This document shows positions 17,776 to 44,893 of a DNA stretch of 64,000 nt, in pieces; position 1 is the stretch's first letter, and every line of letters begins with the position of its first letter. The DNA comes from a virus, in the IMG/VR virus record IMGVR_UViG_3300050490_000084. One strand, given 5' to 3'. Below the pieces are notes generated by a model that ran no database searches, was not told where the DNA came from, and was given only the letters and a program-made list of their open reading frames with translations. Position numbers and translations under genes: made by a program.

Positions 17776-17850
17776 GCGCTCCTAGCTCAGTTGGTAGAGC
17801 GCCCGGTGTAAGCAATCGGGAGGTCAATGGTTCGAAACCATTGGAGCGCA
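17776..17850 (+). tRNA. tRNA-like RNA with 9-nt anticodon loop (central AAG)
   Basis: Acceptor GCGCTCC/GGAGCGC, same D-arm, stem CCCGG/TCGGG, loop TGTAAGCAA, T-arm AATGG-TTCGAAA-CCATT; no encoded CCA. Confidence 0.75.
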
Positions 17851-17869
17851 CGAAGCGAAAGGACACGCC

Positions 17870-18295
17870 ATGCAAAAGCTCTATGTCGTCACGCGGTCAA
17901 ACCTGAGTCCCGGCGCGATCGTCGCGCAGTCCTGTCACGCCGTGAGCGCCTTCGCGGTACGCTTTCCCGATGAGCATCGCACCTGGCACGCGCACGGCCA
18001 GAACCTCGTCGTGCTCGCTACTCCCGACGAGTCAGCGCTCGATTGGCTGATCCGCGCACTCGAGGGCGTGCACCATATCCCGTGCGCGGCGTTCTTCGAG
18101 CCCGATCTCGACCACGCGCTCACGGCGTTCGCGGTGAGTGACCGAGCGGCGAAGCTGCTCTCGCAGCTGCCGCTCGCTTTGCGAGCTCCGCGCTGCTCGG
18201 ACTGCAAGGAAGGCCAGCTCGTCCCATCTGCGCGCGCTGCGCCTAGTAGTGATCTCCGCCGAAGATGTGACCGTCACCATGCGATAGCTCGTTAG
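17870..18295 (+). CDS. pth2: peptidyl-tRNA hydrolase II (PTH2)-family protein
   Basis: KLYVVTRSNLSPGAIVAQSCHAV...NLVVL...FFEPDLDHALTAFA pattern; AAGGA RBS. Confidence 0.75.
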   Translation: MQKLYVVTRSNLSPGAIVAQSCHAVSAFAVRFPDEHRTWHAHGQNLVVLATPDESALDWLIRALEGVHHIPCAAFFEPDLDHALTAFAVSDRAAKLLSQLPLALRAPRCSDCKEGQLVPSARAAPSSDLRRRCDRHHAIAR

Positions 18296-19619: not shown

Positions 19620-21274
19620 GTCCCGGCTTCCGTCGGCGCCGAGCTGCCTCCACACGCTTTTTATCCGCGTTGCACCACCGACAGAGAATCTGGATCCCGG
19701 CTTCCGTCGGCGCCGAGCTGCCTCCACACACCTGGGGGAGCGACGAGAAGCCTAAGAGCAAGAAGGTCTCGGCTTCCGTCGGCGCCGAGCTGCCTCCACA
19801 CAGAGACCATCGGACTCATGCCGCGTCTGACCATCGCCGTCTCGGCTTCCGTCGGCGCCGAGCTGCCTCCACACCCTCGTGAACGCAAGGAAACGAAAAT
19901 GTCCGATTATAGTCTCGGCTTCTATCGGCGCCGAGCTGCCTCCACGCCACGCACAAGCGCGCGGACTGCTATGCGATGACATGTCTCGACTTCCATCGGC
20001 GCCGAGCTGCCTCCACACTTCGCAGAAGCGGTCAATTGCGTGGTCGCCGGACTCGTCCCGGCTTCCATCGGCGCCGAGCTGCCTCCACACGCCGTCGGGC
20101 GAGCGCCGCACGCTCTGCATCGTGAGTCCCGGCTTCCATCGGCACCGAGCTACCTCCACACGCGCTCTTTTTTATCCGCATTGCACCACCGGCAGAGAAT
20201 CTGGGTCCCGGACTTCCGTCGGCGCCGAGCTGCCTCTACACCGCGAGGAGTGACCTGCACACCCGACCTCCGGGCCCCGTCCCGGCTTCCGTCGGCGCCG
20301 AGCTGCCTCCACATCGGACCACGGCTCGGACAAACCGGTTGGGTGCTTATCGTCCCGGCTTCCGTCGGCGCCGAGCTGCCTCCACACCGGATCGTCCCCC
20401 GGCGTGGCTGCGTGTGGACTCGACCCGTCTCAGCTTCCGTCGGCGCCGAGCTGCCTCCACACTCGCGTGCACCGAACCGCGACGAATCGGAACTGCTTGT
20501 CTCAGCTTCTGCCGGCGCTGAGCTACCTCTACACAAGCGCCAGGGATCCAGGTGATTCGTCCCGGGTGTCTCGACTTCAGTAGGCGCCGAGCTGCCTCCA
20601 TACTCCTCCGCTAGGCTGCGCAAGGGGTCGTCGCGAGATCGTCGCGTCTCGGCTTCTATCGGCACCGAGCTGCCTCCACACCGCGCCGACGAGTAGGTCG
20701 CGCCCTCGCCCGCCCAGCAGTGTCTCAGTTTCCATCGGCACCGAGCTGCCTCCACACGTTCCGGTCAAAGTCCTGGCAAATGATGTACTTGAGCCGTCTC
20801 AGTTTCCATCGGCACCGAGCTGCCTCCACACGCAGGAGGACTTTCCACTCAGTCCGACGCGGGGCGGCTGTCTCAGTTTCCATCGGCACCGAGCTGCCTC
20901 CACACCGCGCTCCCTGGTGCACCTGCTCCGCCCGCACCTGTCTCAGTTTCCATCGGCACCGAGCTGCCTCCACCCCCCCCCTCACGAGCGAAGGGCTCGC
21001 GCATGACGCGACGAAGGTCTCAGTTTCCATCGGCACCGAGCTGCCTCCACACTTTCCTGCCCCCTGACGAGGTCGCTGTGCTGCATGAGTCTCAGTTTCC
21101 ATCGGCACCGAGCTGCCTCCACACACTTGGCGCAGCTGCTCCGCGTCGGCGCGCACCAGCGGCAAGGTCTCAGTTTCCATCGGCACCGAGCTGCCTCCAC
21201 ACACCCGAATCCTCGCGCATGCCGCGCTCACTGCAAATGTCTCAGTTTCCATCGGCACCGAGCTGCCTCCACAC
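19620..21274 (-). CRISPR. CRISPR array: 23 repeats (36 nt; one of 37 nt) and 22 spacers of 33-43 nt
   Basis: Minus-strand repeat GTGTGGAGGCAGCTCGGTGCCGATGGAAACTGAGAC (leader-proximal) and GTGTGGAGGCAGCTCGGCGCCGACGGAAGCCG(A/G)GAC (distal); uniform near 21274, degenerate distally. Confidence 0.98.
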
Positions 21275-21343
21275 CGGTTCAATTGTCACAGAACAATTCC
21301 GCCCACTTACCGGACGACTTGCGAGCGCCTCGAAAACTATCGC
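21275..21343 (-). promoter_or_regulatory. putative CRISPR leader
   Basis: 69-nt, AT-richer gap between the effector stop and the most uniform repeats; contains GATAGTTTTCGAGG, identical to 30622-30635. Confidence 0.55.
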
Positions 21344-22810
21344 CTACTCAGCCGCGTCGAGTAGCTGATTCTTCGCGTTATTTGCATCCTGATCCCAGGC
21401 AGCACCGCAGCTCTCGCAATCATGACGAAGCTCGCGCGCCTTGTCCCATTTGCAGAGCGCCCCACAGGCATGGCAAGTGAGCGTGCGCTTGGCGGGCTTG
21501 AGCACCTCACATCGCGCGCCGAAGACGCTCTGGATCTCTAAGCGCAAGCAATGCGGGCCCACCAAAAACCGGTAGTGCCGCGCTGCCGGAATGTCATCCT
21601 CGCTTGGTGTCCGCTTGACGACGCTCCGCATATCGAAGGCCTCGATGATGACCGAGTCATAGCTCGCGGCGAGCTTGCGCGCCCAGAGTCGATAGATCTC
21701 TCGGCGAGCGCGCAGCACGGAAGCATACTCGTCCCGCTCCCACTGGTAGAGGTGCCGATCACGGCGAGCCCAGTGCTCAGCATCCGTTCCATCTCGCTTT
21801 GCCGCTTGCTCCATCGTAAACCACTCGCGCCCGAGTTCACGGTGAATCGCGTCGGGATCCGCGAGCGCGGAGCAGCGTGCTTTTGTTCTGCGGGCGGCAT
21901 CTCCGAGGTAGGCGGCCGCGATCTCATCGGCGAGGCTCCGCAATGACTCGGCATGCTTCTGCCGCCCGAGCAGCGCATCAGGGAACACGCAACTCGTCTC
22001 GTTCCCGTCGTCGTCCACCGCGTACGCGACGCGGATGCCGCCCGGCACCCGGCGCCAGCCGAAGTTGACCGCGCAGCGGCCGAGGCCGCCCTGGGCGACG
22101 TGCACGCGCGGCGCTGCGTCGATGGTCAAATGTACGGAGTAAGTCCACCGATCTCCGATGCGATCGATCACGAGCCGCGCGAAGATCACCCGCACGTCAT
22201 AGGGCACGCCCTCCTTCTCGGCGCGCTCGGGGAGCGGCCGGTGATAAACGATGGGCACCTCAAGCGAGAGCCCCTCCCGCAACCGGAGCGTGACCGTGCG
22301 GTGCTTCCCGTCGCCCGAGATTTGCACCGGGCCCGGCTTCGTGAGCACGGCGCTTGCCTTGAGCCCGGTTGCCCCCTGCACCGTCGCTGCCAGGATCCCC
22401 TCCCCATCGAAGCGCCGGTGCCGCGGGCGCGCGCAAGTCATGACGCGCTTCAAAAAATCATAGCCCTTCTTCGAAGCCCGCTGCCGCGCCTTGAACTCAT
22501 CCGAACGCCGCGTCTTCATGGCAGCCGCCACCATCTCCGTCACGGCTTGCTTTTGGCCCCAGCCGATCGGCGTCGCGGCCCCGGCCGCGCGGCACGCGGC
22601 GTTGTAGGCCAGCCGATGCTCGGTCTTTTGCTCGTCGGAGAGCGGAGCGGATTGCGCGAGCTCGACGATGTCTCGCGCGGCGATGCGCCAGCGCTCGATC
22701 TCGATGAGCGCGTTGTAGAAGGCGTTCGAGTGGCGCTGGTACTGAAGCAGATCTTCGAAGGTGCCGCCGATGACCTTGGGTTTCAGCGCGCCGTATTTGT
22801 AAACGATCAT
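21344..22810 (-). CDS. cas12m: compact type V-M (V-U1) Cas12m-like effector, probably nuclease-deficient
   Basis: RHRRFDGEG, VYHRPLP, RuvC-I AVNFGWR (N249), RuvC-II IIE390, Zn finger C446/449/465/468, RuvC-III WDQD475; adjacent array; motifs parallel Cas12m as I recall it (RHHRFDG, ALHLGWR, YDQD). Confidence 0.85.
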   Translation of the reverse strand: MIVYKYGALKPKVIGGTFEDLLQYQRHSNAFYNALIEIERWRIAARDIVELAQSAPLSDEQKTEHRLAYNAACRAAGAATPIGWGQKQAVTEMVAAAMKTRRSDEFKARQRASKKGYDFLKRVMTCARPRHRRFDGEGILAATVQGATGLKASAVLTKPGPVQISGDGKHRTVTLRLREGLSLEVPIVYHRPLPERAEKEGVPYDVRVIFARLVIDRIGDRWTYSVHLTIDAAPRVHVAQGGLGRCAVNFGWRRVPGGIRVAYAVDDDGNETSCVFPDALLGRQKHAESLRSLADEIAAAYLGDAARRTKARCSALADPDAIHRELGREWFTMEQAAKRDGTDAEHWARRDRHLYQWERDEYASVLRARREIYRLWARKLAASYDSVIIEAFDMRSVVKRTPSEDDIPAARHYRFLVGPHCLRLEIQSVFGARCEVLKPAKRTLTCHACGALCKWDKARELRHDCESCGAAWDQDANNAKNQLLDAAE

Positions 22811-22839
22811 GATTGGTCCTATTTGCCCAAAAAGTTGCG

Positions 22840-22987
22840 GTCTCGGATTCAGTCGGCTCCGAGCTGCCTCTGCACAGATTCGTCAGCCAAAGTCCTTCGG
22901 GTCTCGGCTTCTATCGGCGCCGAGCTGCCTCAAATCTCTTCCATGACCCGGGTCTCGGCTTCTATCGGCGCCGAGCTGCCTCAAATC
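22840..22987 (-). CRISPR. 3-repeat mini-array upstream of the effector gene
   Basis: Repeats at 22840-22875, 22901-22936 and 22952-22987, same family with altered 5' ends; spacers of 25 and 15 nt. Confidence 0.85.
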
Positions 22988-23805: not shown

Positions 23806-24451
23806 TGATGTCGTCCTTTCCAATCAGATCAATGTAGGTTTCGATTTGTTTTTCGACGCGAGCGAGCAGCGTCGCATCCTTCGGGTCTTGGAGCGCCGAG
23901 CGGGCGCGGAAGAGCTCATTGAGCTCGACGTAGAGATCGAGGCGCCTCGCAGAAGGATCCTTCTCCTTCTTATGCGCCTTCTCTTTCTTCTGGTCCTCGA
24001 ACCACCCCGCCACCATCGTCAACATGTCACGCTGGAGCGTGACCATGTCGTTCGGGCGGGGCTGAAGCATGCGTCCGCCGCCGGGCAGATCAACGCCGAG
24101 GCCGTAATCGCCGACGCCATTGAGGATGGCGTAGTCCTGTTGCTCGCCGACATAGCCGTCTACTTCGCCGCCGCCCTGAGCGATGTACTGCCCCTCGGGA
24201 CCTAGGCCGCCAGCAAGCGCATTCTGATGATTCTCTTGGGCGCGGAGACGTTGGGCCTCGCGCACGCTCGTCACGAGCTCGGTCGAGATCTTCTGACCCA
24301 TCACGCACAGCCGAGAAGCGCGCCCAAAGCGCCCCGGATCGCTGCTCGCGAGCAGCGCCGTCACCGCGTCGCTCATCGCGCTCAGCACTCCGCGGAATTT
24401 CTCTTCGATGGGTGAGTGAGACGGCGGCGATGGGATCGTTTCTTCAGCCAT
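23618..24451 (-). CDS. hypothetical protein
   Basis: Long ORF; the C-terminal ~60 codons overlap the next gene. Confidence 0.6.
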   Translation of the reverse strand: MAEETIPSPPSHSPIEEKFRGVLSAMSDAVTALLASSDPGRFGRASRLCVMGQKISTELVTSVREAQRLRAQENHQNALAGGLGPEGQYIAQGGGEVDGYVGEQQDYAILNGVGDYGLGVDLPGGGRMLQPRPNDMVTLQRDMLTMVAGWFEDQKKEKAHKKEKDPSARRLDLYVELNELFRARSALQDPKDATLLARVEKQIETYIDLIGKDDINESPAPDTHVVSAELLRGHSLGESEQWGDAGRDRRPVLHREGGDESLAGRGEAERPDQGAVG

Positions 24452-24520
24452 GACAAGTCTTCTCGCGCATGACGCGCTTCAATCCGTACCTACGTTGCCC
24501 CGCCAGAAACCTTCCCCGTT

Positions 24521-35176: not shown

Positions 35177-35226
35177 ATCCTGCCCGACAATGCCTCAGGG
35201 GCGCAACTTTTTGGGCCGAGAGGGGT
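35177..35226 (-). promoter_or_regulatory. A-tract sigma70-like promoter; 24-bp block identical to 44815-44838
   Basis: AAAAAG-TTGCGC-N18-CAGGAT. Confidence 0.55.
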
Positions 35227-35237
35227 GGCGGCGGGGA

Positions 35238-41024: not shown

Positions 41025-41058
41025 AAGCTACCCGGATCCCGAATCCGAAGCAACTTTT
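41025..41058 (-). promoter_or_regulatory. A-tract sigma70-like promoter
   Basis: AAAAG-TTGCTT-N17-TAGCTT. Confidence 0.55.
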
Positions 41059-41753
41059 CGGGCCATGAGGCGCTGGCGATCTTGAATCTTTCGCTCGGTC
41101 AGCGGGCGCGCCTGCGACGAGCTCACGGGGGCCGGACCCCCGCGAGCGGCCGGATAGTGCGGCAGCAGCAAGCGCCGGAGTTTGCCGATCGCGCGCTTTT
41201 CGATCTGCCGGATGCGCTCGCGGGAAATGTCCCAGTCGAGGGCAATCGACTCGAAGGTGCGCTCCTCGACGAAGCGCTGCTCGATCACGTAGCGCTCGCG
41301 GGGCGAGAGCTGACCGAGCACCTGACCGATGAGGGCTTCCGCCTCGGTCGTCTCCAGGCGCGCATCCGGCGCCGGAAGCTCGGTACGGATTTGACGCCGC
41401 GACTCCCCGAAATCGTCCTCTTCGTCCATACTGGAGACGATCCCCTGCCGCTTCTTGCTTCGACCCGTGCGACGGAGCAACTCGAAGCGGTGCATGAGCG
41501 AGATATACGCGTACGTCTTGAAACTAGCGCCACCGTCTTCTCGGTAGGTCATCGTACTCTTCCAGACCGTCAGCTGACCCATCGCGACGATGTCATCGTA
41601 GTCATAGAAGCGCGCGAGCTTCCGGGCGTATTGACCAGCCACGTGCCGCACGAGCGGCAAGTACTGCTTGAGCAGCACGAGGCGCTCGGCATACGAGCGC
41701 GCGGGAAGCTCCGCTTCCGGAGAAGCGCATTCAGCAAGGGCACGAGCGGACAT
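41028..41753 (-). CDS. sigma70-family factor (regions 2 and 4)
   Basis: YLPLVRHVA..DDIVAMGQLTVWKS..ASFKTYA; LSPRERYVIEQRF...ISRERIRQIEKRAIGKLR. Confidence 0.88.
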   Translation of the reverse strand: MSARALAECASPEAELPARSYAERLVLLKQYLPLVRHVAGQYARKLARFYDYDDIVAMGQLTVWKSTMTYREDGGASFKTYAYISLMHRFELLRRTGRSKKRQGIVSSMDEEDDFGESRRQIRTELPAPDARLETTEAEALIGQVLGQLSPRERYVIEQRFVEERTFESIALDWDISRERIRQIEKRAIGKLRRLLLPHYPAARGGPAPVSSSQARPLTERKIQDRQRLMARKVASDSGSG

Positions 41754-44788: not shown

Positions 44789-44838
44789 AATCTACCGGAG
44801 GGGTGGGGCGCCCAGCAACTTTTTGGGCCGAGAGGGGT
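44789..44838 (-). promoter_or_regulatory. A-tract sigma70-like promoter; 24-bp block identical to 35203-35226
   Basis: AAAAAG-TTGCTG-N18-TAGATT. Confidence 0.6.
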
Positions 44839-44893
44839 AATAGGGCGCAGGGGGACTCTCCCCGGACCACCTCAGCCCACTGGACACCGAAGC

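Follow-up and report, generated by a model that had tools for sequence, protein, structure and literature searches.

Organization of the locus

The window analysed here is a 64,000-nucleotide (nt) stretch (positions 6136-70135) of the IMG/VR virus record IMGVR_UViG_3300050490_000084, a 135,429-bp genome with direct terminal repeats (DTR) that is rated 100% complete. Its minus strand carries a CRISPR locus, in which a gene for a Cas12m effector of 488 amino acids (aa) is followed by a leader and a repeat array and preceded by three degenerate repeat units (Table 1). The protein is a Cas12m (type V-M, formerly V-U1) by sequence, profile and fold, its Cas12m matches standing above those to TnpB and Cas12f. 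The kind of system is known already, and the locus represents a new small branch within it. The original prediction had described an effector of this length, with the residues N249, E390 and D475 and a CCCC zinc finger, next to a 23-repeat array and with no cas1, cas2 or cas4 gene in the window. The effector is as described when its codons are read and aligned, and the array was recovered by both a pattern search and a covariance model. Six-frame searches with hidden Markov models (HMMs) found no Cas1, Cas2 or Cas4 in the complete 135,429-bp genome, which extends that claim beyond the window.

Table 1. Features of the cas12m locus, in window coordinates.
Feature	Position	Strand	Basis or remark
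cas12m gene, 488 aa	21344..22810	minus	open reading frame (ORF); miniature N-E-D clade
N249, first RuvC position, AAC	22064..22066	minus	codon checked; D in canonical Cas12, H317 in Cas12m2
E390, second RuvC position, GAG	21641..21643	minus	codon checked; kept in at least 90% of the clade
D475, third RuvC position, GAT	21386..21388	minus	codon checked; invariant in the clade
CCCC zinc finger of the TNB domain (C446, C449, C465, C468)	21407..21475	minus	codons checked
Leader, stop codon to first repeat, 69 nt	21275..21343	minus	11-locus alignment
CRISPR array of 23 repeats (36 nt each) with 22 spacers (33-44 nt)	19620..21274	minus	pattern search, covariance model
Eight identical cas-proximal repeats, derived variant	20722..21274	minus	repeat comparison
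Spacer 5, 30/34 match to own gene at 12282-12315	20906..20939	minus	spacer search
29-nt stretch from last upstream repeat to cas12m ATG, holding an AGGA ribosome-binding site	22811..22839	minus	placed where a guide would lie
Upstream mini-array, three degenerate foldable repeats, 15 and 25 nt apart	22840..22987	minus	covariance model, 50-55 bits

The effector is a Cas12m with an N-E-D RuvC site

In a phmmer search of the PDB the protein matched the Cas12m structure 23vw with an E-value of 3.8e-36 and UnCas12m4a with 2.7e-10, while a TnpB-like protein reached 0.055. A profile of its clade, described below, gave 3.2e-68 for 23vw (over nearly the full length), 9.6e-29 for UnCas12m4a, 5.6e-25 for Cas12m2 and 2e-20 for GoCas12m, compared with 7.7e-6 for a TnpB-like entry and about 4e-4 for Cas12f. 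The PADLOC model for Cas12u1 matches at 5e-48. A PADLOC model labelled Cas12f scores close to it, at 2e-49, which we read as an overlap of labels. Pfam and NCBIfam recognise, weakly, the C-terminal zinc-ribbon/TnpB-type region alone, including a weak Pfam TNB match, and the NCBIfam TnpB models stay far under their cut-offs.

The AlphaFold2 model (mean predicted local distance difference test score 89.8) has a bilobed WED-REC-RuvC-TNB fold nearest to the solved Cas12m structures, and Cas12m structures fill all of the first four Foldseek ranks. With VIA-align, Cas12m2 and GoCas12m gave Z scores of 21.8-23.3 over 421-439 residues, TnpB 18.4-20.6 over 323-359 residues and Cas12f 17-18. The margin of Cas12m over TnpB is thus only 1-3 Z units, with ∼90 more residues aligned to Cas12m. 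The earlier assignment to a Cas12m-like protein and not to TnpB therefore held in the phmmer, profile, fold and PADLOC comparisons. Cas12f, which works as a dimer that depends on a trans-activating CRISPR RNA (tracrRNA), was considered as an identity and rejected: its E-value and Z scores are poorer than those for Cas12m.

N249, E390 and D475 align to the D/E/D residues of 23vw and to H317/D485/D579 of Cas12m2, so that the three RuvC positions read N-E-D, one of the variable, non-canonical triads of the Cas12m type. N249 is invariant in 36 clade members, as are C449, C465 and C468 of the zinc finger; C446 is kept in at least 90% of them. Because E390 and D475 are conserved and N249 does not vary, the active site pocket is under selection, as it would be in a Cas12 that still cut DNA despite Asn at the first position. 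We consider such a cutter very improbable. The first RuvC carboxylate coordinates the catalytic metal, and cleavage is absent in Cas12m proteins whose triad is H-D-D, N-D-D or even D-E-D. D-E-D and H-D-D members bind DNA without cleavage and silence their targets (PMC10442227, PMC11013384), and the N-D-D protein PmCas12m likewise binds without cutting (bioRxiv 10.64898/2026.03.26.714355). By analogy with these proteins we infer DNA binding without cleavage for the window protein, and predict that it processes its own CRISPR RNA (crRNA) precursor.

A miniature clade without the Roof

About fifty relatives of 425-520 aa came out of database searches, and a clear gap separates them from ordinary Cas12m-like proteins, which have 550-700 aa. 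A FastTree phylogeny of 114 sequences, built with midpoint rooting, no TnpB outgroup and every second long relative only, separates 36 short proteins from the rest by a long-stemmed branch whose support is 100. Profile and phylogenetic comparison had been named in the original prediction among its checks; by profile the protein is a Cas12m, and its clade is the one set apart by this branch. The triad is N-E-D in 35 of the 36 short proteins and N-D-D in the remaining one. The rest of the family in the tree is mostly D-E-D, with N and H variants scattered.

Most of the size difference lies in the segment from N33 to G85, which measures 52 aa in the clade against a median of 118 in longer relatives (∼66 residues fewer). 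The RuvC helical insertion is reduced from 66 to 52 aa (∼14 fewer), the WED domain is ∼13 residues shorter and the C-terminal tail is shorter too, and the clade has gained a private insertion of ∼24 aa after a GWG motif. In GoCas12m, a 75-residue arginine-rich insertion within REC (residues 50-124), called the Roof, has been linked to tight DNA binding (PMC11013384). With the profile offset to GoCas12m of ∼76 residues, the large deletion of the clade falls at the Roof. These proteins have neither the long arginine-rich REC helical insertion nor the enlarged RuvC helical insertion of GoCas12m and MmCas12m. It had been proposed that the protein is ∼100 aa shorter than characterised members and has a reduced N-terminal helical insertion, and the ∼66 residues missing at the Roof agree with this. 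The Roof segment is also missing in a few D-E-D relatives of 526-529 aa, so it is not defining for the whole Cas12m family.

The clade is conserved down to 30-40% identity and has arrays at most loci. Its members come from three IMG/VR records and from metagenome contigs, many of them 110-136 kb long like the present genome. A pattern-based scan of one genome each of 185,579 prokaryotic species did not find the clade and returned, as a pointer to a host, only one relative, 30% identical, in Paraburkholderia. Nor was the clade found among deposited phages (50,697) or plasmids (72,556), in which relatives reach at most 32% identity, and none of the 134 Cas12m sequences that Bigelyte et al. reported (PMC11013384) contains its hallmark motifs. 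The novelty is this small, roofless, uniformly N-E-D clade, so far on viral and metagenomic contigs only.

Three further Cas12m-like genes were encountered in these searches. P0029 (520 aa; loci L007 and L014-L017) represents a sub-branch of the short clade on 19 contigs; it has no array within 5 kb and lies near an integrase and a HigB-like gene, and therefore looks like an orphan cas12m. GenBank entry KX853510.1 (Virus Rctr197k, 197 kb) holds at 112507-113424 a Cas12m-like gene with 31.6% identity over 61% of the query, annotated merely as similar to transposase. A complete IMG/VR record of 83.5 kb with DTR (G002; locus L003, 6001-8171) encodes a 531-aa D-E-D Cas12m-like protein accompanied by an eight-repeat array with a different repeat sequence.

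Repeat RNA, leader and array

The pattern search found exactly 23 repeats, and the spacers have a mean length of 37.6 nt. On the minus strand the repeat starts with GTGT and ends with GAGAC. Over the whole genome the covariance model detected 26 units, all on the minus strand, namely the 23 of the array and the three upstream of cas12m, and none elsewhere; it found no anti-repeat on the opposite strand that would indicate a tracrRNA. In the folded repeat, positions 13-18 pair with 29-34 as a helix of 6 bp, and 8-10 pair with 19-21 to give a pseudoknot helix of 3 bp. In a covariation set of orthologous repeats from eleven loci, the variants of the window and the upstream units, 99.3% of the cells pair and 6 of the 9 pairs change on both sides. 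None of 500 shuffles reached the observed values, and slid controls paired at 31-43%. The few G-U pairs fit the minus strand, which is therefore taken as the RNA strand.

A 36-nt repeat with a helix and pseudoknot handle and no tracrRNA is the Cas12m type of array. The topology matches both the PmCas12m crRNA and the MmCas12m repeat, the latter known from the crRNA oligonucleotides in the supplement of PMC10442227. A likeness to the MmCas12m repeat had been suggested, and it is real because the repeat topology fits.

The leader (∼70 nt) is kept across the clade, down to loci whose effectors are 36-41% identical. Among 11 loci the block CTCGCAA is invariant, and TAAGT and GGAAT..TC.GTGACAA are conserved. 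The eight gene-proximal repeats are identical, and further from the gene the repeats drift, as arrays usually do at their older end. In the leader-side variant a C-G helix pair has become U-A and a neighbouring pair G-U, and repeat 9 is a one-sided intermediate. Copying of the first repeat with every addition would be expected to leave this pattern. Spacers 22 (19656-19693) and 15 (20162-20205) are almost copies of each other (about 93% identity), suggesting duplication or recombination within the array.

These data bear on another account, in which an ordinary TnpB/IS200-IS605 nuclease lies beside repeats by chance, or the gene is a decaying relic. Weak C-terminal matches to TnpB-type Pfam and NCBIfam models, and TnpB structures that reach Z scores of about 20, speak for it. 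We find it scarcely credible, given that the Cas12m E-value is better by more than 30 orders of magnitude and that the gene stands beside 23 regularly spaced repeats whose leader is conserved and whose pseudoknot covaries, where TnpB would have a single omega-RNA at the 3' end of its gene. Moreover, the clade has been kept to 30-40% identity with arrays at most of its loci, the triad is N-E-D where TnpB nucleases are D-E-D, this genome carries one copy of cas12m where TnpB often has several, and no repeat unit occurs outside the locus.

Spacer targets and array turnover

Samples differ in the part of the array nearest to cas12m. In the rhizosphere metagenome run X4 a contig joins position 20720 to 21238, and X4 depth is zero over the seven cas-proximal units that are skipped, parts of which are covered by other runs. 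The short array in X4 could be an older state or a deletion between identical repeats; an assembly artefact is also possible.

All-vs-all spacer searches yielded three credible matches to kin or self, the rest being noise. Spacer 5 matches a gene of this phage itself (Table 1). The closest relative, L012, whose effector is 86% identical, has a spacer that matches the present genome at 34/35 positions, in a 680-aa ORF at ∼120.6 kb that has no PHROG, Pfam or PDB match. The third belongs to the related phage G001 and targets cas12m: it matches 36/38 positions of the gene of G001 itself, with a mismatch at guide position 6, 27/28 of the gene in the window and 22/22 of that in L012. In addition, contigs of run X2 match spacer 2 alone, with unlike flanks, and are candidate targets. 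Four of the spacers were sought as exact matches in IMG/VR with no result, and when the entire array was compared by BLAST with the related phages G001 and G002, the matches lay in repeats or leader only. Judging from these matches, the main use of the array is probably against rival related phages.

Upstream repeat units and a shared motif

All three upstream units score well with the repeat model (Table 1), and the third keeps helix 2 by an A-U compensatory pair of its own. Comparable units occur in relatives. L012 has two, the second with a private G-C swap and ending 38 nt before the ATG; L006 has one, ∼51 nt before the ATG; and L008 has two before a three-gene operon that ends in cas12m.

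The 29-nt stretch between the last unit and the ATG begins with 15 nt that recur in the window at 35202 (15/15), 44815 (14/14) and 41049 (13/15). The intergenic motif to which they belong (GCAACTTTTTGGGCCGAGAGGGG-like) spans 35202-35230, 44814-44842 and 41049-41063, with another occurrence at genome position ∼109274 (103139 in window numbering). A separate near-palindromic motif lies at 24462-24478, in front of the gene at 24451 and 11-27 nt from its ATG; this is its only copy in the genome outside the array, where spacer 1 (16/17) and spacer 4 (15/15) match it.

Such sites raise the question whether the locus serves mainly gene control, with a nuclease-dead effector, the mini-array and partly self-matching spacers tuning phage operons or host genes, a role like that of the TldR repressors encoded by prophages. 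The 15-nt recurrence at three intergenic sites (E 0.002 for 35202) agrees with that, as do the core shared by spacers 1 and 4, whose match precedes the gene run leading into cas12m, and the 36/38 match of the G001 spacer to its own cas12m; self-targets would be tolerable for an effector that only binds. We nevertheless regard control as the main role as unlikely. Flanking the motif at its three sites are GGG, CCC and CGA, so that no protospacer-adjacent motif (PAM) is shared, the matches span just 13-15 nt, and the motif at these sites is part of a longer element that is absent from the cas12m leader. The equivalent segment of L012 is unrelated in sequence, and 22 diverse spacers with turnover from sample to sample suit defence better.

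Proposed mechanism

The best explanation, which we hold to be likely, is a type V-M locus of the miniature clade that binds without cutting, directs its array against related phages and may be subject to feedback at its 5' end. As in characterised relatives, the array would be transcribed with or after cas12m and the transcript cut to crRNAs of roughly 33 nt of repeat and ∼17-20 nt of guide. Since the N-E-D RuvC site would, by the same comparison, be unable to cut DNA, the complex is proposed to bind PAM-flanked targets and block their transcription or replication. To go by the spacer matches, the chief targets would be related phages competing for one host, including a rival's own cas12m. With no cas1 or cas2 on the phage, new units might be added by host adaptation proteins acting in trans or by recombination between arrays. 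Through the structured 5' repeats, next to the ribosome-binding site, Cas12m would most likely bind the transcript that encodes it or process that transcript, which would result in negative feedback.

Several observations weigh against this explanation. The clade is without the Roof, the segment tied to tight DNA binding (PMC11013384), so that binding may be weaker or follow another mode, and in the literature consulted we met no experiment made directly on an N-E-D Cas12m. For most spacers no target could be identified; the three protospacer flanks (CGT, CGT and TTC/CTC) are too few for a PAM call; and the kin-matching spacers could equally be explained as self-derived and regulatory. The upstream units are absent in the relatives L004, L002 and L013, and the locus is absent from all RNA runs searched. 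Finally, the Pfam families Terminase_6N, TerL_ATPase, Phage_capsid and Phage_portal have no match in the genome.

A bolder form of the proposal is conceivable but doubtful. Here the clade would consist of self-regulating, naturally minimal DNA binders of phages that are guided by RNA, act on the 5' units and perhaps on phage promoters with the 15-nt motif, gain array units at the leader through the host's Cas1-Cas2, and bind tightly without a Roof at 425-490 aa.

Carrier element and gene neighbourhood

The carrier is a ∼135-kb soil/rhizosphere virus, and near-identical sequence is present in at least 8 rhizosphere metagenome runs. That the locus is phage-borne, as originally predicted, agrees with the IMG/VR classification of the record as a complete virus with terminal repeats. 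The label 'phage' rests on this class and on general gene content, and it leans on IMG/VR because capsid, portal and terminase were not recognised. Among the genes recognised are those for collagen-like fibre proteins, a DnaB-type helicase, a sliding clamp and thymidylate synthase, together with an integrase-like gene whose PHROG matches are weak. Between 110 and 130 kb of the genome (L031), ORFs of 270-680 aa follow one another on the plus strand; comparison of the large ones with PHROGs, Pfam, PDB and Atlas returned nothing useful. They may be highly divergent virion genes.

An RNA polymerase sigma factor is encoded at 41028-41753 of the window (phrog_351, E 1.7e-20), among minus-strand genes and beside the fibre genes. 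At 17679-17851 and 17870-18295 of the window, two tRNA genes predicted by ARAGORN (Ser-GCT and Leu-AAG) adjoin a gene whose counterpart in the syntenic relative L004 is PTH2-like, and in L004 cas12m is flanked by the same tRNA/PTH2-like neighbourhood. The ORFs adjoining cas12m have no PADLOC or Pfam match, and consensus scans for promoters and terminators performed no better than chance.

Relation to known systems

Cas12m is under development as a small, naturally 'dead' Cas protein for CRISPR interference, base editing and epigenome editing. A natural clade of 425-520 aa would reveal which parts are dispensable, including the Roof that is thought to underlie tight binding, and could provide smaller scaffolds. 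The locus also points to large, related soil phages opposing one another with CRISPR, one of the guides being directed against a rival's cas12m. The apparent array turnover without acquisition genes of its own bears on how virus-borne, adaptation-less arrays obtain spacers.

The original prediction had emphasised an adaptation-less system with an Asp to Asn change in RuvC. Both features are real, but as distinguishing marks they do not stand, since the Asn substitution, the missing adaptation genes and a viral carrier have all been described for Cas12m already. PMC10442227, citing Wu et al. (2022), gives DED/NED for clades 3 and 4, and V-U1 loci are typically without acquisition genes (PMC11013384). 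Virus-borne examples are the IMG/VR-derived UnCas12m (583 aa, D-E-D), characterised in 2024 (PMC11013384 supplement), and MvCas12m of myxophage MV-1 (610 aa, D-E-D), reported in a 2026 preprint as the first in a phage (bioRxiv 10.64898/2026.09.14.751636). Both resemble the window locus in having a V-M effector with an adjoining array and no cas1, cas2 or cas4, but are full-length D-E-D proteins, unlike the short N-E-D clade.

The structurally solved MmCas12m2 (8HHL/8HHM/8HIO) and GoCas12m (8PM4) share with the window protein the fold, the CCCC finger, a non-canonical RuvC site and the absence of adaptation genes, as well as a 36-nt repeat with helix and pseudoknot that ends in GAC and needs no tracrRNA. 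Identity to them is only 19-20%. They are H-D-D instead of N-E-D and reside on an actinobacterial plasmid or chromosome instead of a virus, and the window protein is ∼100 aa shorter, with ∼66 residues missing at the Roof. The best sequence match, 23vw, is a D-E-D protein of 577 aa. N-E-D is already on record in clades 3 and 4; what separates the present clade from 23vw and other D-E-D and N-E-D Cas12m proteins is its long-stemmed branch, a uniform N at the first RuvC position and a length of 425-520 aa. PmCas12m and xCas12m also have Asn at this position, in an N-D-D triad, and the same crRNA pseudoknot topology. xCas12m, the smallest engineered version that we came across, was presented as hypercompact at 581 aa, and internal deletions abolished its activity (bioRxiv 10.64898/2026.03.26.714355). 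The natural clade found here is 60-150 aa smaller.

Two systems outside Cas12m are also comparable. TldR is a natural, nuclease-dead, RNA-guided repressor encoded by mobile elements (prophages); it uses one omega-RNA and has no array, whereas the window locus has an array of 23 repeats. CreR is a degenerate mini-array beside cas genes, like the upstream units of the window; by partial pairing to cas promoter DNA, for which we found no counterpart here, it feeds back on cas expression.

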